From NCBI GenBank assembly GCA_965222775.1, contig OZ244971.1, forward strand, positions 1,309,165 through 1,373,164: DNA of 64,000 bases, given 5' to 3'. Below are positions 27,622-35,489 of the stretch, piece by piece. Within the stretch, counting starts at the first letter, position 1. Each line of letters begins with the position of its first letter. Origin of the DNA: Hyphomicrobiaceae bacterium (GTDB lineage Bacteria; Pseudomonadota; Alphaproteobacteria; Rhizobiales; Hyphomicrobiaceae). Made by a program: the position numbers and the translations under genes. The notes under the pieces are model-generated. The model searched no databases, was not told the DNA's origin, and worked only from the letters and a program-made list of their open reading frames with translations.

Positions 27622-29211
27622 CTAGTGACCCCACTTCTGCCATGCAAAGTAGCCAAACCCGCTGATTGAACTGACTAGTAGCCAGGTGGGCAGAGCGGAC
27701 ACAAACGCCAATGCGACCATGGCGAATGGCAGCATCCACAGCTTTCCCCACAAGGCGTCAATTCCCTGCGATGCTGCCGATTTATGGCGTGCCAGCTGTT
27801 CCATTGTGCCGTCAACATTGTCCAGCACAGCCTTCGAACGAAGTTCCTGGGCAGTCCATTGTTCTTCGGCGCCGTAGGTTGTGTCCTCGAAGGCGTATGT
27901 ACGTAAGTTTGATGGGGCGCGCTGGATTCGTCTCCCGCGCCTGCCGAAAGTAGGAGATGGTGCCTCGTCCGCCTCCTTGATTCGTTGCTTCGATATAGGA
28001 TTGTGTATTTGGCCACGGCGCCCCAATTGAGAACGTGGCGCGGGAAAGTGCTCCCGTTGACCAGCCCATCGATCACGGTTTTGTCGAGGTTTTTCGGCCA
28101 ACGCATCGGCAAATTGCACACCGGTGGTCGCACTGATTGCGGCAATGCGATCGGCTATCGAAGGATGTGTCCACTGATCGACGCCGGACAAGTTGGAAAT
28201 CATCATCATTTGATATTTCGGATTGAGGCCTTCAATCTTGTCGTTCCTTGATATTTTATGCAGTGCCGACATCAGGGCACCTGGCTGTTTCACGATTTCG
28301 ATCGCACGCGCGTCTGCAATAAACTCTCGTTTCTGTGAAATCAGGTATTTCACAGCGTGGGCCATGAAATATGCAAGTACGATCAATCCGTATCCAATTA
28401 GAACGCCATACCATGCGCCTATATATAGCGCCGCGCCCAAACCAACGGCTGTCTGTAGGGGATAGTTTTTGATGTACGCTGCTGTCTTGTGACTATTTCT
28501 AGTGATAACGCCTGCACAAAGGTTGGCGATCGTCATCAAACGGTTGTCACGATTTTCGATATGCGCGAATTCGTGCGCAAGAACAGCCTCAAGTTCCGCA
28601 TCATTCAAAGTGTCAAGGAGTCCGCGCGTTACGCCAATAACCGAATCGGCCGGCGTCATGCCGCCTGCATAGGCGTTGCAACCGGGGCTCTCAATGACCT
28701 CAAGCTTGGGCATCGGCAGTCCGCGCGAAATCGCCATAGGTTCTATAAGCCCGTACAGGCGGGGCTCATCTTGCCGACGGACGCGAACCGCCATCATCTG
28801 ACGACGCGCGTATCGGCTTTGAAACCATAGACCAATTCCAACGTATACCAGAGCCAGGAGGAAGATAATGCCGGCGATGCTACCTAGCAATGCGTCGCGT
28901 TCCCAAAATTGGTTCCAGATCTCACCAACATGTTGGGGAATGGAAATACCAAGTTCTTGTGCAATGGGATTTTCGCCCGGCAGCCCACTGTTGAGATTGG
29001 TGTATATGGGGCCATTTGTTTCCCCAGTCAGAATATTTCCATATGTCTCGAAGGGGCTTCCCATCGAGATCAGAATAACTGACGTTGCCACGTAGAGACA
29101 TTGCAGTAGGATCGCAAACCAGACAAACAGCGCCAAAGAGCGCAAATTGTTCTCTTGGATGTGAGCAAAAAGTCCCTTCGGCGCCGGAAGTGTTTCGGCA
29201 ATCTCAGTCAT
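27622..29211 (-). CDS. M48-family (HtpX/Ste24-like) zinc metallopeptidase with a long C-terminal extension
   Basis: N-terminal TM helices and the HExxH motif (LAHEFAHIENRD). ~200 aa of extra C-terminal sequence ends in a further TM segment. Confidence 0.75.
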   Translation of the reverse strand: MTEIAETLPAPKGLFAHIQENNLRSLALFVWFAILLQCLYVATSVILISMGSPFETYGNILTGETNGPIYTNLNSGLPGENPIAQELGISIPQHVGEIWNQFWERDALLGSIAGIIFLLALVYVGIGLWFQSRYARRQMMAVRVRRQDEPRLYGLIEPMAISRGLPMPKLEVIESPGCNAYAGGMTPADSVIGVTRGLLDTLNDAELEAVLAHEFAHIENRDNRLMTIANLCAGVITRNSHKTAAYIKNYPLQTAVGLGAALYIGAWYGVLIGYGLIVLAYFMAHAVKYLISQKREFIADARAIEIVKQPGALMSALHKISRNDKIEGLNPKYQMMMISNLSGVDQWTHPSIADRIAAISATTGVQFADALAEKPRQNRDRWAGQREHFPAPRSQLGRRGQIHNPISKQRIKEADEAPSPTFGRRGRRIQRAPSNLRTYAFEDTTYGAEEQWTAQELRSKAVLDNVDGTMEQLARHKSAASQGIDALWGKLWMLPFAMVALAFVSALPTWLLVSSISGFGYFAWQKWGH

Positions 29212-29233
29212 CGCAAAAACTCCAACGCCAAAA

Positions 29234-29812
29234 TTAGAGGGCTTTCACAACGGGCGCGTCTTCGACAAACATACGATCCTCACCCAGCCCAAAGAACCTC
29301 TCCTTGTTCAACCCGCGGTATGCAGCGATCAAAGAGCCTGGAAACTGCCTAATGGAGGTGTTGTATTCGTTTGCAGAGAGGTTCAAAAACCGCCGCGATG
29401 CTGCAATCTTGTTTTCCATGTCCGACAATTCGGCACGCAAGACCGCAAACTCTCGTTGTGACTTAAGCTCAGGATAGTGTTCGGCGGCGGCCATAAGCCG
29501 TTCGAGATTATTTCCTAACTGAATCTCGGCCTTAAATTTTGCAGGACCCCCCATGGCATTTAGCGCATCAGTCCGCGACCTAAGCACGGCGTTGATCGAG
29601 TCCTTCTCCATACCGACGAAATTGTGCACGGTCTGAATAATATTCGGGATCAAGTCATGGCGTTGGCGCAGCTGAACATCGATATCGGCATAGGCCTGTT
29701 CGCAGCGACTTTGCAGTGCCATGACGCGATTGTGGCTCATCAACAAGTAGGCCAGCACCCCGGTGATAAGCAGGAGTAAAACAATTATAAACATTATCAG
29801 ACCAGTGAGCAT
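29234..29812 (-). CDS. lemA: LemA family protein
   Basis: 192 aa with an N-terminal TM helix and the conserved LemA core (RCEQAYADIDVQLRQRHDLIPNII...). Located immediately upstream of the M48 peptidase gene, the common LemA-M48 pairing. Confidence 0.85.
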   Translation of the reverse strand: MLTGLIMFIIVLLLLITGVLAYLLMSHNRVMALQSRCEQAYADIDVQLRQRHDLIPNIIQTVHNFVGMEKDSINAVLRSRTDALNAMGGPAKFKAEIQLGNNLERLMAAAEHYPELKSQREFAVLRAELSDMENKIAASRRFLNLSANEYNTSIRQFPGSLIAAYRGLNKERFFGLGEDRMFVEDAPVVKAL

Positions 29813-30059
29813 AGGACTCCCTTTCCAATTTGAAGTCGATCTTCATTTGATCAAAACAGTAGAGATCTGTGGTAAATATCTATTTGATGAACATGGTAAC
29901 GATCGTATTTGCGGGAGGCTCAAAATGAACGAATTCAGGTTTTGAATGTAAGTTAGCGATATTTTTAGTAATGGTCGCAATGCTCACGTGAAGCGTTAGA
30001 ATTTGATGCAAAGGTTGCCATGTGTTGACATCACAGCACGAAATACTGGAGGAAGTTTC

Positions 30060-30752
30060 ATGAGCGAGCCACTCATTTCGCGGATCAACCGCTTGATCTC
30101 AGGTGCAGTCTACGGTCAGGTTGAAGCCCTGGAATCGGCGATGGCTGAAACCACCATGCGCGAAGCGATCCGAGAAGTTGAGCGCACGACAGAGGAAGTT
30201 CGCGATCAATTGTTCAATTCTCGTCGCGAGCAGCAAGTGGCGGCCCGCCGAATAATTCAGACGCAAGAGAAACTGGCGCAGCTAGCAGACAAGGTGGAAG
30301 CCGCGCTTAAGGTCGACCGCGATGATCTCGCCGAAGCGGTCGTTAATCGTCAGCTTGATCTTGAAGCTCAAATCCCGATCCTGGAAAAAACACGCGATGC
30401 TGCAGGCGAGCGAGGAGCTGAACTTAACGGCTACATTACCGCATTGAACGGGCGCAAATCTGAAATGGAGGAAGAGCTAAAGGCCTTTATCCAAGCTCAG
30501 AAGGAACTTTCAAATGTGGCTGTTGACGGTGATCTTGGCGGCGAGACCTGTGGTCTGCAAAAACGTGCCGAGAAAGCCGAGAAAGCGTTCAGCCGCGTTG
30601 TGGAAAATGCAACTGGTGTTACCGGCATGACCCGATCGGACCGCGATACCATGTCAAAGTTGATCGAACTCGAATCTGTCCAGCGCAAAGAAAAGGTCGC
30701 AGAGCGTATGAAGGCCTACAAAGAGAAACGAGGACAAAGCGCCTCTGCGTAA
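30060..30752 (+). CDS. pspA: PspA/IM30-family (phage shock protein A-like) protein
   Basis: ~230-aa coiled-coil protein (MSEPLISRINRLISGAVYGQVEALESA...) with PspA-like heptad pattern. GGAGGA RBS before the ATG at 30060. Divergent from lemA. Confidence 0.7.
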   Translation: MSEPLISRINRLISGAVYGQVEALESAMAETTMREAIREVERTTEEVRDQLFNSRREQQVAARRIIQTQEKLAQLADKVEAALKVDRDDLAEAVVNRQLDLEAQIPILEKTRDAAGERGAELNGYITALNGRKSEMEEELKAFIQAQKELSNVAVDGDLGGETCGLQKRAEKAEKAFSRVVENATGVTGMTRSDRDTMSKLIELESVQRKEKVAERMKAYKEKRGQSASA

Positions 30753-30900
30753 AGCTGCGTGGATTATATCAACAAATTTTTGCCTGAATTCAGCTATAAA
30801 CGCTGCGCCCCCTTGCGACGCCGTGTGGTTGGGCTCGTTGAGACCCACCTGGCGCACGCCGCTGTGCGGTTTGATGTGTGTTCCGCGATCAACAGGGACC

Positions 30901-30972
30901 GAGGGCTATAGCTCAGAGGTAGAGCGGCCGGGAACCCGGCAGGACGGAGGTTCGAATCCTTCTAGCTTCACC
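30901..30972 (+). pseudogene. tRNA-Ala-like element lacking a functional anticodon loop (tRNA pseudogene or tRNA-like structured RNA)
   Basis: AGGGCTATAGCTCAGAGGTAGAGCG...GGAGGTTCGAATCCTTCTAGCTTCACCA has an Ala-type acceptor (G3:U70, G2:U71), a canonical D-arm and T-arm (GGAGG/TTCGAAT/CCTTC) and an encoded CCA. The anticodon arm is only GCCGG-GAAC-CCGGC (4-nt loop) and position 1 is A opposite C72. Confidence 0.5.
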
Positions 30973-31053
30973 AAAGCTCAAAGGCTGAGCACAGGGCTGA
31001 TAATCCTGGGGACGTTAAGTCCGTCGTGGGTTCGATTCCCACTGGTGCCTTCC
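30973..31053 (+). other. Second tRNA-like fragment: perfect T-arm plus a 3' acceptor-like strand without a cis 5' acceptor partner
   Basis: GTGGG-TTCGATT-CCCAC T-arm followed by TGGTGCCTTCCA. The upstream portion has D-arm-like GCTCAAAGGCTGAGC but no foldable anticodon arm or complementary 5' acceptor strand. Confidence 0.35.
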
Positions 31054-31421
31054 AAGCACGATCGGTTTGGGTCCGATTTTCGAAGACAAGATGGGGAGCT
31101 GGCTTCTCTCCAAGCCCAATTGCTGAAAATCCAAAGCTACGGCTGCGGATTGGATGCGAGAGGGCAGCGTTTCTGACGCTTTGTGCTCCATTTGCGGATA
31201 CCGCCAACGGTCTAAACTGGAGCCACTTGTCCCCGGCATCGTTCTTTTAAAGGCGGTGTCGGCAACTTGTGGTGTAAGGCGGTGATTGTTGTCTTAAGCA
31301 GGGGCCCGCGGCAGGAACGTTGGGGGGAAGTCAGCGACCTTTTGTTTGCAGCAAGGTTATCGTTACGTGCTCGTTGTTCATGAGCAGGAATTGTTGAAAA
31401 AGAATTGTTGAGGAGTTTGTT

Positions 31422-32579
31422 ATGGCTGTCCTTGGCGTGTTTCGCGTAACTGTCAAAGATGATGAACGCGCTTTTCTGATGCGTGGTGGCCGGTTTGTGC
31501 GTTTGCTTGGTCCAGGTCGACATGTGTTTTTTGATGTCACGGGCCAGTACACGGCGGACGTTGTCAAAGTTCTGCGTTCGGAGATTCCGGCAGACCGTGC
31601 ACTGATGTTTACAAAGCTGTCGCCTGACTTGGCTGATGAAAACTTTGAGGTCGTTCAAGCGGGCGCCAACGAGGTTGGCATCGTCTCGTTTGACGGCGAG
31701 CCGAAGCATCTTGTGTTGCCGAACACCACGCGCGCATTTTGGAAGGCGGTGACGGATGTCGGCGTAGATAAAATTGACACGTCGGCTGATCTGCGGGTTG
31801 CCAAGCGCCATCTGGACAAAATTGACGTGGCGCGGGCATCGGTCGTGGTGCAAGAGGTTGTTGAGCCGCATGAAGCTGGTCTGTTGATCGTTGACGGCGA
31901 GATGGTCGAGCGTTTGAAGCCTGGTCGGCATGCGTTCTGGTCGGTCGCGCGGACGGTCAAGATCATCAAACTGGATCTGCGTCCGACGCCGTTGGAGGTG
32001 ACGGCGCAGGAAATCATGACCAAAGACCGGGTTGGCATTCGCGTGACGCTGACGGCGTTTACGAAGATTGTTGATCCGGAGAAGGTCGTGATGGCGGCTG
32101 ATGATGTGTCGAACACGATCTACCGTCTTATTCAGTTTGCGATTCGTGAGGCTGTGGCGACGCGCACGCTCGATGAGATTTTGGCGGCGCGCGATGCGAT
32201 CGACAACGAAGTGCGTGCGTTTGTTTCGCAACGGGCAGAAAAGCTTGGCGTCGAAGTGGGTGAGATTGGCATTAAGGATGTCATTTTGCCGGGCGATGTG
32301 CGTGAGCTTTTGAACAAGGTTGTTGAAGCTGAGCGCGTAGCCAAGGCGAACCTCATTCGACGTCAGGAAGAGACGGCGGCGACGCGGTCGCTTCTCAACA
32401 CGTCGAAGCTGATGACCGACAACCCGCTGCTCATGCGTTTGAAGGAACTTGAGGCGCTGGAGCGGCTGGTTGAAAAAGTTGGCCGGATCGATCTGCATGC
32501 TGGTGAGGGCGGCGGCCTTGAGACGTTGTTGCGCAAGCTTTACTCGCTGACGCCTGCGAAGGAGGATGAGGAGAAGTAG
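31422..32579 (+). CDS. SPFH/band-7 (stomatin/prohibitin/flotillin-like) domain protein
   Basis: 385 aa. The central SPFH core (TKDRVGIRVTLTAFTKIVDPEKVVMAADDVSNTIYRLIQFAIREAVATRTLDEIL...) is followed by a coiled-coil C-terminus. Confidence 0.8.
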   Translation: MAVLGVFRVTVKDDERAFLMRGGRFVRLLGPGRHVFFDVTGQYTADVVKVLRSEIPADRALMFTKLSPDLADENFEVVQAGANEVGIVSFDGEPKHLVLPNTTRAFWKAVTDVGVDKIDTSADLRVAKRHLDKIDVARASVVVQEVVEPHEAGLLIVDGEMVERLKPGRHAFWSVARTVKIIKLDLRPTPLEVTAQEIMTKDRVGIRVTLTAFTKIVDPEKVVMAADDVSNTIYRLIQFAIREAVATRTLDEILAARDAIDNEVRAFVSQRAEKLGVEVGEIGIKDVILPGDVRELLNKVVEAERVAKANLIRRQEETAATRSLLNTSKLMTDNPLLMRLKELEALERLVEKVGRIDLHAGEGGGLETLLRKLYSLTPAKEDEEK

Positions 32580-32893: not shown

Positions 32894-34450
32894 TTAGTCA
32901 CGTTGCATATGAACGAGATTATGTTCCAAAGTAGTGTGATGAAATCGTGCAGCAAAATCCCATGGCTGGGGAATGCTCTTGCGCCCCAAAATGCGTCGAC
33001 GGGAAGGTTTGGGTATAACAAAGATTTCGGGTGGCCTGAAATTTTCACCGACCTTACGATCGATTGCGCGTTTATATTCCTTTTTGACCCAACTAGATTT
33101 CTTTGCAGCATGACTCCAGATAACGCAGAATGTGTTGCAGCCGTCAATTTCATTTAACAGACGACTTTCCCAGTCCTCGCCAAAACGCAATCTCAAAACA
33201 TCAATAAATGGTTTAAGGCGGACGATTTCTAAGTCTTCGGCTAGATACTTTGCACGGAGCCAATCCCTTCGAGCATATGAAACGAATACTGGCTCGGCGC
33301 CTTGAACTGCCTGACAAACACTCGCAGAATGAGAAGCAAGTTGTGCCGTGCCACAATAAAAACTCAGAACAAGTCTGCCAATGTAGTGCTCGTTGATCCA
33401 TACACGGACGATCGGGTGGAGTTCGTTTACAGCCAGCTGTTGAGGAAAAGTGATTTTGAACTGGAGGGTCTCGGTCTCTCCGCTCCAGTCTACATATTGG
33501 ACAGGTTCGTCAGCAATGACCTCTTCGTCGCCATCAAATTGGACCGTGATTCGGTCTCCGCGGTGGACTTGCATTGCCATAAGTTGAGATGGCGTTGTAA
33601 ATTCGCTTTGTCCGAAGTTGCGCCGCAACCCCTCAAGTTGGTTGCGTTGATGTAGGCTTACTCGGAGTAGCGAGGTGGCGCCTGGGACGATAATCTGATT
33701 TGCGAAAGCGGAGCAATCGACGGTATCAATATCCTTCGAAGCGGAGTTCGGGTTTGTCGCGTTGTTCGCTTTGTTGGTCGCAAAGGTTGCAAGGCTCGGG
33801 GGAATACTTGATTTGGTCAATAGAAGAAGCTTCGATAGTGTGGACCATGCTTCATCACGGTAGATCCATGCAAGTGCGCCGAGAGCCAGCAACGATGTTG
33901 CAGCTCCTAACCAGAATCCTGTGTTGCGAGCAAGCCAAATATCATAGGTGGGTCGCCTCACGCCTTTCGGCGAAACGAAATATGATACTCCGAGGTCCCT
34001 TACTCGAGAGCTGACGGAAGTTGCAGTGCGGCGGTGGGATAGACTCACGTCAGTACGGATTTGCGGAGATATAGAAATTTTTGTAGTTACGAACTTGTCC
34101 TCCGCGTTACGGACAAGCTCTCGCAAAATCACCAACTCGTCGCTACTCGCAATCGATACGGTTGGGACGGTTGCTATGCTTTTGAGTTCAGGACTATCTC
34201 TAAACTCTTTTGTTGCCGCAATTATGGGCGAAACCCAGGGATGACGTTTTAGGTGGCTTAGAATTAATTGGACGCGTTTTTTAAGACCGAAATTGTTGGC
34301 GATGATAATGGCGAGTGCGAAATCTTCAAGATTGAGCCTTAGTGCGCGCTCTGAAGTGGTCGCCGTAACAGAGCGAAGGTCTGAGCCAAGAACTTCCTGA
34401 AGTTGTGTGAGAAATGTGCTTTCGTCGTCGCCGATTAACAGTATCTTCAT
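32894..34450 (-). CDS. Multidomain protein: N-terminal CheY/REC-like (probably pseudo-receiver) domain, one TM helix, a beta-rich middle region, and a C-terminal TIR domain
   Basis: C-terminus ...EPVFVSYARRDWLRAKYLAEDLEIVRLKPFIDVLRLRFGEDWESRLLNEIDGCNTFCVIWSHAAKKSSWVKKEYKRA matches the bacterial TIR pattern (betaA VFVSY, G-D-W, SxWxxxE with a conserved Glu). The N-terminus MKILLIGDDES...ALAIIIANN has a REC-like fold signature but no acceptor Asp at the end of beta3. The hydrophobic segment is FWLGAATSLLALGALAWIY. The locus looks more AT-rich than its flanks (inspection only, no count). Confidence 0.65.
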   Translation of the reverse strand: MKILLIGDDESTFLTQLQEVLGSDLRSVTATTSERALRLNLEDFALAIIIANNFGLKKRVQLILSHLKRHPWVSPIIAATKEFRDSPELKSIATVPTVSIASSDELVILRELVRNAEDKFVTTKISISPQIRTDVSLSHRRTATSVSSRVRDLGVSYFVSPKGVRRPTYDIWLARNTGFWLGAATSLLALGALAWIYRDEAWSTLSKLLLLTKSSIPPSLATFATNKANNATNPNSASKDIDTVDCSAFANQIIVPGATSLLRVSLHQRNQLEGLRRNFGQSEFTTPSQLMAMQVHRGDRITVQFDGDEEVIADEPVQYVDWSGETETLQFKITFPQQLAVNELHPIVRVWINEHYIGRLVLSFYCGTAQLASHSASVCQAVQGAEPVFVSYARRDWLRAKYLAEDLEIVRLKPFIDVLRLRFGEDWESRLLNEIDGCNTFCVIWSHAAKKSSWVKKEYKRAIDRKVGENFRPPEIFVIPKPSRRRILGRKSIPQPWDFAARFHHTTLEHNLVHMQRD

Positions 34451-34487: not shown

Positions 34488-35489
34488 CTAACGCCATCGG
34501 CGAGATGCAAAGCCAACATAATCCGAAGGATCGGGAAGTGTAGGTTCTGTTGAGAGTGCTGCCCGAATAATGGCAGCGATGTCTGTCGTTGGGTCTGTTT
34601 CGGTTATCAAAGCGACAATCAATGGGCGCTGCCAGTCGGTGCCACGTTTATAGCAATTGGAACAGGGCGAAGAGAACTGGCCAAGACTGACGACCCATAT
34701 CGGTACCTGGCCTGTTCGTGGGGCCATCCAACTTGCTAGTTTATTAGCCCTAACTAGGGAACGCGGTAGCTCTTTTTCCGGGTCGCCTTCCGAGGAAGCG
34801 GCGCCAATCGACACAATTGTAGTACCGCGCAATAGCTTGTCTCGGATATGTGGTAGGAGTAGATCTCCTACGAAGGCATCTCCGGCGAGGCGTTTTGTTC
34901 CGCAGATGATCAATTCGGTGTCACCCTTCGGCCAATTGCAGGACTGGGAGAAGACCACGAATTCAACTGTATGCCGTTGCTGCGGTCCGGCTAACGTTCT
35001 CACAATGCTAACGTTGGGGCTCGGTTCCTTCGACGACGAGATCGATCCGTTTTGTATTATTGGCTGATCGGTGCTCGGTGTGGTTGACGTAGATTGTTTC
35101 GGCCAGTTGTTTGCAAATAGCGAGAAGACCACTAGCAAAGCTCCGGCAATGGCAAAGATGGCCGCTAAAACAAGTGCAACTGTAATGAAACAAGTTATTA
35201 GTGCAAAGACTGCATGAAGCACGTGAGCGGCGATTTTTCCAACATGCAAGGTGAGCAGCGCAATGGTTGAGAACACAAACGAAACGATTATCTTGATGAT
35301 CCGGGCTAGATTGCTGACGACAGTCCCAGCTAAATTGAGTGGAAGGGCGAGCCCTCTTAGGTAACCTGCCAAAAAAGCAGAGGTACGGTTGGTCGCACCG
35401 ACGACTCTTTGTCTTTGGGCGTTGATGTCTGGTGGTTCGAACACTGGACAAATCTTATTAGTATATGCGGTTGTATTCCGATAAAACAA
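34488..35489 (-). CDS. Membrane protein (2-3 N-terminal TM helices) with an uncharacterised C-terminal alpha/beta (Rossmann-like, possibly SLOG/DprA-LOG-like) domain. Putative partner of the TIR protein
   Basis: 333-aa ORF 37 bp upstream of the TIR gene on the same strand. Its TM block is IIKIIVSFVFSTIALLTLHVGKIAAHVLHAVFALITCFITVALVLAAIFAIAGALLVVF. The C-domain alternates hydrophobic beta-strands (EFVVFSQSC...ELIICGTKRLAGDAF...TIVSIGAASSEGD...IWVVSLGQF), consistent with a Rossmann-like fold. The family assignment is speculative. Confidence 0.5.
   Translation of the reverse strand: MFYRNTTAYTNKICPVFEPPDINAQRQRVVGATNRTSAFLAGYLRGLALPLNLAGTVVSNLARIIKIIVSFVFSTIALLTLHVGKIAAHVLHAVFALITCFITVALVLAAIFAIAGALLVVFSLFANNWPKQSTSTTPSTDQPIIQNGSISSSKEPSPNVSIVRTLAGPQQRHTVEFVVFSQSCNWPKGDTELIICGTKRLAGDAFVGDLLLPHIRDKLLRGTTIVSIGAASSEGDPEKELPRSLVRANKLASWMAPRTGQVPIWVVSLGQFSSPCSNCYKRGTDWQRPLIVALITETDPTTDIAAIIRAALSTEPTLPDPSDYVGFASRRWR

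Follow-up and report, generated by a model that had tools for sequence, protein, structure and literature searches.

Two tandem tRNA-like elements, here called A and B, were found directly upstream of a slipin gene of the Band-7 (SPFH) family in a 64,000-nucleotide (nt) stretch of contig OZ244971.1 from a Hyphomicrobiaceae bacterium. This whole stretch is referred to below as the window. The tRNA-like character of the pair is far beyond chance, and the two elements were shown to lie within an RNA of ~525 nt which is conserved, folded, and kept by selection, and which travels with the slipin gene through genome rearrangements. By analogy with known pairs of RNA and scaffold protein, A and B are probably tRNA-derived domains of this noncoding RNA (ncRNA), which would be the cognate partner of the downstream Band-7/slipin protein.

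Tandem tRNA-like elements in a conserved structured RNA

The homologous regions of six other lineages (L263 and L264, which are the closest, and L265, L269, L275, and L277) were aligned with that of the window to give alignment A3, representing seven alphaproteobacterial lineages. The same tandem pair was present 5' of the slipin gene in all six, scoring 35 to 58 bits with the Rfam tRNA model. The conserved region begins ~80 nt before A and ends ~290 nt past B, and the features of the locus, including the motif upstream of the RNA and the gene downstream of it, are as follows.

30775..30790 (+): palindrome-like motif AATT...GCC...AATT, ~35 nt upstream of the RNA, seen on aligning the seven upstream regions
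30823..31347 (+): whole conserved structured RNA of ~525 nt, holding A and B (alignment A3, RNAalifold, covariation)
30827..30849 (+): 5' hairpin P1 (helix 2; 98% of cells paired, 2 pairs changed on both sides)
30851..30887 (+): hairpin P2 with an inner hairpin, leading into the nearly invariant GCGUGUUCCGCG (helices 3 and 4; register of the outer stem uncertain)
30902..30973 (+): element A, a full cloverleaf with G3:U70, ACCA, and the loop GAAC (ARAGORN, Rfam, covariation)
30974..31045 (+): element B, with a D arm, an arm with a 7-nt loop, a long variable arm, and a T arm (Rfam, alignment)
31046..31059 (+): hairpin GUGC-CUUCCAA-GCAC (conserved loop, covarying stems)
31061..31077 (+): hairpin AUCGG-UUUGGGU-CCGAU (helix 12; 4 pairs changed on both sides)
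31093..31340 (+): 3' domain of ~250 nt, closed by a helix of 31093-31113 with 31320-31340 (helices 13 to 24)
31341..31347 (+): U-rich tract, the terminator-like 3' end of the RNA (terminator-like site at 31318-31336 plus a T run)
31422..32579 (+): slipin/Band-7 (SPFH) gene (Pfam Band_7, E = 5e-28)

RNAalifold predicted 139 base pairs on the seven-sequence alignment, and covariation was counted on this structure and compared with 500 shuffles. Standard pairs were formed in 91.6% of the cells, compared with 81.6% after shuffling and 40 to 46% when the partners were slid by one to three columns. Changes on both sides were found in 62 of the 139 pairs, compared with 33 in the shuffled alignments and 14 to 22 with slid partners, and on every measure the observed value exceeded that of all 500 shuffles. 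The sample is just seven sequences, and the structure was derived from the same alignment that was scored; even so, the margin is wide, with a contribution from every tRNA stem. Within the 3' domain, eight pairs had changed on both sides in helix 13 (18 pairs) and eight in helix 20 (10 pairs), and the domain holds the invariant GCGGAUACCG at 31194-31203. G:U pairs are frequent throughout the RNA.

The identity between the window and the other lineages was 60 to 81% for the RNA, compared with 38 to 57% at the third codon positions of the adjacent gene, while the spacer before the slipin start codon had 24 to 57% identity to the window. The best conserved parts were element A (75%) and the 5' hairpins (73%), separated by 17 nt just 5' of A that are unconserved (27%). 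Conservation collapses after the helix and U-rich tract at the 3' end, the U-rich tail being present in four to five of the seven homologues. The GG of the D loop, the UUCGA of the T loop, and all stems are retained in both elements (except that B has no conserved acceptor stem), indicating that both L-shaped bodies are under selection. Folding of the single window sequence was uninformative, with a z-score of -0.29 and a long-range GAGGGC/GCCUUC pairing which is not conserved. With permissive thresholds, Rfam returned nothing beyond the generic tRNA model for the window, four alphaproteobacterial loci, and the Escherichia coli locus described below, and a promoter scan upstream of the RNA found no sigma-70 consensus.

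Scans with ARAGORN and Rfam had been proposed together with the sequence-only reading that drew attention to the pair. ARAGORN labelled element A "tRNA-???" with a 2-nt anticodon, and the Rfam tRNA model matched 30902-30970 at 48.7 bits over its full length. The element occupies 30902-30973, one base later than had been proposed; its arms, loop, acceptor pairs, and tail were otherwise as first described. The acceptor stem is AGGGCUA/UAGCUUC, with an A1xC72 mismatch and the pairs G2:U71 and G3:U70, the D and T arms are canonical, and ACCA is encoded at the end. The "anticodon" arm, GCCGG-GAAC-CCGGC, consists of 5 bp and a 4-nt loop, and in the seven lineages this loop reads GAAC, GAAU, GAAA, GAAA, UGAAC, CUCUUC, and GGUUGGC. 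The last of these, found in L265 alone, is the only one of 7 nt and is without U33; ARAGORN labelled this copy "tRNA-Gln." With a variable loop of 4 to 7 nt, element A is non-decoding. Its 7-bp acceptor stem and CCA were found in most lineages (CCA in five of seven), A73 was likewise present in five of seven, and G3:U70 was retained in six of seven although other acceptor pairs vary. Element A of L263 has A3:U70 and ends in GUCA, and that of L277 ends in ACAA. The acceptor, "anticodon," and T stems (helices 5, 7, and 8) covary among the homologues. From these features, alanylation of element A is conceivable.

Element B was matched by the Rfam tRNA model at 36.9 bits (30971-31045, model positions 5 to 66). 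Its T arm (31026-31042) had been recognized in the sequence-only reading, which missed the D arm, GCUC-AAAGGCU-GAGC (30976-30990), and the long variable arm (31009-31025). The same reading had parsed B as having no usable anticodon loop, and this was mistaken, since a 5-bp stem with a normal 7-nt loop, CAGGG-CUGAUAA-UCCUG, is present at 30992-31008 with the "anticodon" GAU. Nor is the presumed 3' acceptor strand with CCA what it appeared to be: UGGUGCCUUCCA comprises a linker of 2 to 3 nt followed by the 5' strand and loop of the separate hairpin GUGC-CUUCCAA-GCAC. A loop of the YUUCCAA type recurs in the homologues of this hairpin (UUCCA in five of seven), and its stems covary (GUGC/GCAC, UCGC/GCGA, GCGU/ACGC, GUCC/GGAC, and CUCGU/ACGAG).

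The loop of element B has 7 nt in every lineage (CUGAUAA, CUGUUAA, CUUAUAA, CUUUUAA, CUAGGGU, or CUGUUAC), and across the seven lineages the "anticodon" reads GAU, GUU, UAU, GUU, UUU, AGG, and GUU. The long variable arm is present in just four of them. The acceptor-like stem ranges from 0 to 5 bp, with 5 bp in L275 and L277 and 3 bp in L269; in the clade of the window, any such stem is either missing or fortuitous, and there is also no CCA. In the window genome only, the 5' side of B can pair by way of the ACCA tail of A (CACCA/UGGUG), a pairing that is not conserved among the homologues. Element B is therefore non-decoding, because its anticodon differs between species and it has little or no acceptor stem. 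The earlier statement that neither element decodes is thus upheld, for A on account of its loop and for B for reasons other than those first given.

Linkage of the RNA to the slipin gene

In all seven alphaproteobacterial lineages sampled, the RNA lies directly upstream of the slipin gene on the same strand, the distance from the end of the RNA to the start codon being 24 to 135 nt and just 24 nt in L275 and L277. What lies upstream of the RNA varies, the gene there encoding PspA, ZupT, a GMC oxidoreductase, Nramp, OpgC, or a CO-dehydrogenase subunit. In L265, L269, L275, and L277, where the slipin is 72 to 75% identical, it is the GMC oxidoreductase, Nramp, OpgC, or CO-dehydrogenase gene, and in the two closest relatives (slipin identity of 86 to 87%) the order is GMC oxidoreductase, ZupT, ~1.2 kb without genes, and slipin. 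The slipin gene of L263 is followed by the biotin operon. The window keeps the L263-type backbone with two additions, one being M48 peptidase, LemA, and PspA genes between ZupT and the gene-free stretch, and the other a pair of genes, one with a TIR domain and one unknown, that separates slipin from the biotin operon. Both additions are absent in the syntenic L263, indicating that they are lineage-specific, whereas the RNA pair and the SPFH gene are not.

The slipin gene is thus the conserved partner of the RNA and not island cargo, and the earlier proposal of an SPFH-TIR islet inside an old island is not supported. A second proposal, that the elements serve as processing signals for pspA, likewise lacks support. 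The four loci with PspA orthologues (57 to 72% identity) retain the M48 peptidase-LemA-PspA arrangement, and no tRNA-like element was found downstream of PspA in any of them, indicating that pspA is the wrong neighbor.

Homologues of the slipin were very many at 72 to 76% identity, with two at 86 to 87%, and some are named "slipin family protein [Hyphomicrobiaceae bacterium]." The gene has 67 to 80% DNA identity among the lineages. The protein has no predicted membrane helix, its maximum 19-residue Kyte-Doolittle hydropathy being 1.1 compared with 2.6 to 3.0 for nearby membrane proteins, and this is compatible with a soluble particle. A search of viral contigs for slipin relatives gave one distant match, without usable upstream sequence. 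As a separate observation on this protein, the beta-hairpin segment with which the SPFH domain begins occurs twice in the AlphaFold model, which is of low confidence in the N-terminal region concerned (predicted local distance difference test [pLDDT] scores of 24 to 66); the residues are 6 to 49 and 143 to 172, and the repeats read G..F.RLLGPGRH.F and G.....RLKPGRHAFW.

A tblastn search of plasmid and chromid records with the slipin returned homologues of 33 to 38% identity in several Proteobacteria. In Burkholderia cenocepacia (L280), the gene order is RtcR (divergent), a tRNA-like gene, slipin, RtcB, and RlaP, and in Photobacterium (L281) it is RtcR (divergent), two abutting tRNA-like genes, slipin, and RtcB. 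The ARAGORN coordinates of the two Photobacterium genes overlap by 3 nt, as A and B do in the window, and the second was labelled "tRNA-Met." In the Burkholderia element, a stem capped by a GAAA tetraloop replaces the anticodon arm, like that of element A. The acceptor stems, UUUUAAG/CUUAAAA in Photobacterium and GUUCG/CGAAC in Burkholderia, are unrelated to that of A.

In E. coli, an accessory locus of two genes between yjbD and lysC encodes a slipin and an RlaP-family nucleotidyltransferase annotated "RNA repair pathway DNA polymerase beta family," and this locus was present in 1632 of 5426 complete E. coli genomes. The 530-nt region upstream of the slipin contains a sigma-54-type sequence, TGGCAC-N5-TCGCA, a hairpin, the motif GCGUGUUCCG, and a T arm, UGGGUUCGAUUCCCA; the part concerned is L279 2680-2990, corresponding to CP061233.1 at ~611500-611810. 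The motif GCGUGUUCCG is that of hairpin P2 in the window and, as in P2, has its own complement 5' of it. ARAGORN and Rfam recognized no element in this E. coli region, a lone T arm being all that was seen, and no RNA gene is annotated at the site in the RefSeq genomes. Taken together, these loci show an obligate linkage of a tRNA-like RNA to the Band-7 gene across alpha-, beta-, and gammaproteobacteria, represented in E. coli by the T arm and motif only.

Upstream of the alphaproteobacterial RNA, the pattern A..TT..GCC is invariant among the seven regions, and in L275 it forms the perfect palindrome AATTCCGcCGGAATT. The AATT-N8-AATT motif is a putative operator or promoter region, and its sequence suggests that a dimeric regulator may act at the promoter, replacing the sigma-54/RtcR control of the beta- and gammaproteobacterial loci.

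Known systems and competing explanations

The abstract of Burroughs and Aravind's 2016 study reportedly refers to SPFH/Band-7 modules that include "a novel tRNA-like molecule" as well as a new nucleotidyltransferase. Wang et al. 2018 (bioRxiv 10.1101/312249) credit Burroughs and Aravind 2016 with the prediction of b7a-tRNA ("band 7-associated tRNA"), an ncRNA beside a Band-7 protein and RtcB. The passage concerned suggests that b7a-tRNA is functionally redundant with YrlA and sometimes swapped with Rsr/YrlA, calls it unvalidated, and places it "in certain bacteria" (bioRxiv 10.1101/312249). This last wording implies that the RtcB locus may be the usual context rather than a strict requirement. 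A literature search under generic terms gave nothing on the element, and among the papers searched the term b7a-tRNA was found in Wang et al. 2018 alone. The earlier suggestion of a novel tRNA-derived structured RNA therefore stands in substance, with the correction that, according to that passage, the class had been predicted in 2016.

The RNA described here shares with b7a-tRNA the nature of a tRNA-like ncRNA directly adjoining a Band-7/SPFH gene, in a class without experimental validation. The strong resemblance to tRNA is borne out by the Rfam scores (48.7 and 36.9 bits in the window and 35 to 58 bits in the six other loci), and the adjacency to a Band-7 gene by all seven alphaproteobacterial lineages together with Burkholderia and Photobacterium. 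RtcB accompanies the RNA and slipin genes in L280 and L281, and RlaP does so in E. coli, whereas no RtcB was found in the window or at the six other alphaproteobacterial loci. It differs from b7a-tRNA in that two modules abut within a covarying ~525-nt RNA that also carries 5' hairpins and a ~250-nt 3' domain, and in contrast to the b7a-tRNA loci, there is an AATT palindrome instead of a sigma-54 site and no RtcB, RlaP, or RtcR nearby. Compared with b7a-tRNA as described in the passage of Wang et al. 2018, the tandem pair, the extra domains, and the independence from a repair operon look new.

YrlA is comparable in being an ncRNA with a tRNA-like elbow beside a ring-forming scaffold protein (Ro60/Rsr) in RtcB loci, and Ro60 and YrlA occupy the same position in rsr-yrlBA-rtcBA operons. 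In YrlA, however, the T arm lies 5' of the D arm and there is a Ro-binding stem, whereas both modules here are in the normal tRNA order; the Rfam YrlA model scored 18.3 bits against a threshold of 69, and there was no Rsr in the gene tables. The t-elements of plant mitochondria and the mascRNA of MALAT1 are likewise non-decoding tRNA-shaped modules inside longer RNAs, but these are single modules that act as cleavage signals only, whereas here a tandem pair is tied to one protein family, and the mascRNA model gave 15 to 22 bits against a threshold of 42.5. We know of no bacterial modules of the t-element or mascRNA type that form a conserved tandem pair tied to one protein family. Transfer-messenger RNA (tmRNA) has an alanine-type acceptor stem (G3:U70 and ACCA) without an anticodon, as does element A, but A differs in being a full cloverleaf with D and "anticodon" stems, with no tag frame and no model match. 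As for decoding tRNAs, neither A nor B combines a 7-nt loop containing U33 with a conserved anticodon.

We propose, by analogy with Ro60/YrlA, that a regulated promoter would drive synthesis of the RNA, either jointly with the slipin mRNA or immediately ahead of it, and that the RNA would bind a soluble Band-7 oligomer as Y RNA binds Ro60. The two tRNA-like elbows might then serve as handles recruiting enzymes that recognize the tRNA shape (ligase, nucleotidyltransferase, and nucleases) or, alternatively, might mimic damaged tRNA in RNA repair or quality control. The alphaproteobacterial pair would be independent of RtcB, RlaP, and RtcR, its RNA having gained the 3' domain of ~250 nt. A bolder extension, which we regard as rather doubtful, is that the RNA and a membrane-free Band-7 oligomer form a self-standing ribonucleoprotein ring or cage, like Ro60/Y RNA or vaults, freed from the RtcB operon. 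The two linked tRNA mimics, spaced like neighboring ribosomal tRNAs, would capture damaged tRNAs, tRNA enzymes, or stalled ribosomes. For the clade-specific 3' domain, this reading envisages a large, new type of structured RNA with an activity or ligand of its own.

Several points weigh against the proposal of a partner RNA. We infer the RNA-protein complex purely from gene linkage and the Ro60/YrlA analogy, and no RNA-binding fold is hinted at in the AlphaFold structure predicted for the slipin, whose N-terminal region has a low-confidence pLDDT of 24 to 66. A tblastn search found no RtcB, RlaP, or RtcR in the 64-kb window or at the six other alphaproteobacterial loci, so that for this clade an RNA-repair role is unsupported and a mere analogy. 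With only seven alphaproteobacterial sequences, neither the fine structure of the 3' domain nor the register of P2 is certain, and the definition of b7a-tRNA used here is that given by a citing paper, Wang et al. 2018. A cis-acting leader would be equally compatible with the small distance to the slipin start codon and with the terminator-like 3' end.

Such a leader is a realistic, if unlikely, alternative. The RNA would be the 5' leader of the slipin mRNA, with tRNA-like modules cut by RNase P and 3'-trimming enzymes and with the long-range helix and U tract acting as a conditional terminator or as a stabilizing 5' structure that sets slipin expression. Besides the distance of 24 to 135 nt from the U tract to the start codon, which in L275 and L277 (24 nt) leaves no room for a separate promoter, and the terminator-like 3' end, this is favored by the unconserved 17 nt 5' of A, which resemble a tRNA leader, and by the 7-bp acceptor stem, T arm, and NCCA that A retains in five of seven lineages, features used by RNase P. 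Yet a mere processing signal needs neither two L-shaped bodies nor a covarying domain of ~250 nt and conserved 5' hairpins, and similar tRNA-like genes accompany distant Band-7 genes in repair operons, for which, in the passage of Wang et al. cited above, a partner-RNA role is proposed. Moreover, no conserved alternative antiterminator pairing was found in the seven homologues, and a local hairpin that could replace the closing helix of the 3' domain, as in a riboswitch-type switch, holds in four of the seven lineages only. The leader and the partner RNA are not mutually exclusive.

The remaining explanations concern the elements themselves. Alanyl-tRNA synthetase (AlaRS) needs no anticodon, and element A might be released as a tRNA-sized molecule, charged by AlaRS by way of G3:U70, and used as a non-ribosomal alanine donor or sensor. 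The retention of G3:U70 (six of seven lineages), A73, and CCA (five of seven each) speaks for this, but we consider it improbable given the A3:U70 and GUCA of L263, the ACAA of L277, the unrelated acceptor stems of Photobacterium and Burkholderia, and the A-C mismatch at 1:72 in the window; since G:U pairs are frequent throughout the RNA, the persistence of G3:U70 may simply reflect ancestry. That the elements are functionless, being decayed tRNA genes or attachment (att) site remnants of an integrating element as the sequence-only reading had considered, is barely credible. Neither element has the full set of tRNA features, and lineage-specific genes (M48-LemA-PspA and TIR) flank the RNA-slipin pair of the window, but the RNA-slipin unit itself is free of these insertions. 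Seven lineages retain the pair, with compensatory changes in every stem and with conservation above the level of synonymous sites, no further copy of either element or duplicate arm was found in the 64-kb window, and no integrase was found among the open reading frames between pspA and the bio operon. Recent horizontal copies are also unlikely, the 67 to 80% DNA identity of the adjacent gene arguing against them. Equally remote is the idea that A, B, or both function as oddly shaped tRNAs, or that the pair is a two-piece tmRNA. The loop of B does read GAU, and ARAGORN did assign the labels "tRNA-Gln" to the L265 copy of A and "tRNA-Met" to the second Photobacterium element; however, the anticodon varies between lineages, in the clade of the window B lacks both an acceptor stem and CCA, and the L265 loop is without U33. 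As to tmRNA, its earlier rejection is confirmed: ARAGORN made no tmRNA call, the tmRNA_permuted model scored 11.3 bits where 47 are required, and none of the seven homologues has a tag-like frame. Conservation, covariation, and the model scans thus exclude both the decay or att-site explanation and that of working tRNAs or tmRNA.

Inserted genes, viral elements, and wider meaning

The M48 peptidase and LemA genes (both on the minus strand) and the PspA gene (plus strand) form a trio at 27622-30752 of the window, L001 5597-8693, L002 5640-8681, and L010 1085-4199. The trio is a unit in four lineages of differing surroundings, lying in the window between ZupT and the RNA-slipin pair. On the other side of the slipin gene, 32894-34450 (minus strand) encodes a 518-amino-acid protein with a C-terminal TIR domain (Pfam TIR_2, E = 4.8e-13) and weak PADLOC matches to SAVED_TIR and ThsB. 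The adjoining 34488-35489 (minus strand) encodes a 333-amino-acid protein with strongly hydrophobic segments and no family match. From their sequences, these two genes are a small lineage-specific insert, possibly a defense gene pair.

Similar elements were also searched for elsewhere. A pattern describing the A/B junction (T loop, CCA, and D arm in direct succession) returned only ordinary tRNAs with terminator hairpins after them in genome, metagenome, and viral contigs, and proved too strict because relatives of the pair differ at the junction. BLAST searches of phages and plasmids with the elements and the whole RNA gave generic tRNA similarity or nothing. One contig (L257, JGI contig Ga0310122_10008341) carries, at ~70-260, a normal tRNA-Ala(GGC) ending in CCA that directly abuts a tRNA-like fragment, in which a second D arm is followed by a stem of 7 bp (loop GGCA) and a T arm that is broken; the sequence is unrelated to the pair in the window.

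Another search used the pattern GGTAGAGC-N15-AGG-N5-GGTTCRANTCC, which describes a tRNA body with a D-to-T distance 3 nt short. It matched at least 120 IMG/VR viral contigs (L012-L131 among them), for example L012 3972-4041 (-), L013 6443-6512 (+), and L014 1913-1981 (-). Among 60 distinct sequences of this kind, most are full cloverleaves with a covarying 5-bp anticodon stem and a 4-nt loop (CTTC, GGAA, GAAA, GGCA, and others), and some lie inside phage tRNA arrays. ARAGORN labels the sequences "tRNA-???." No description of such short-bodied phage elements was found in the literature searched. Judging from their sequences, they may be phage counterparts of non-decoding tRNA mimics. A further set of viral contigs (L133, L157, L166, L168, L194, L219, and L235) contains class-II phage tRNAs with the loop CUGAUAA and thus an isoleucine anticodon, GAU, on a body with a D arm of the Ser/Leu type and a long variable arm. 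They may serve in mis-sense decoding or recoding, or may have been picked up by the search pattern by chance.

With regard to the Band-7-associated RNAs, b7a-tRNA, which was predicted on a single occasion from comparative genomics, has no Rfam family of its own and is matched by the generic tRNA model only, and such elements may well be annotated as pseudo-tRNAs or left out. The covariation seen at the locus described here is strong evidence for a real RNA maintained by selection, and the locus demonstrates that such an RNA can far exceed the size of a tRNA, with a tandem pair and extra domains. Since the RNA-slipin pair persists without a repair enzyme alongside, the pair itself is the core unit. 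The relative found in E. coli, present in ~30% of complete genomes, offers a convenient system in which the function of a Band-7 protein and its tRNA-like RNA may be studied.

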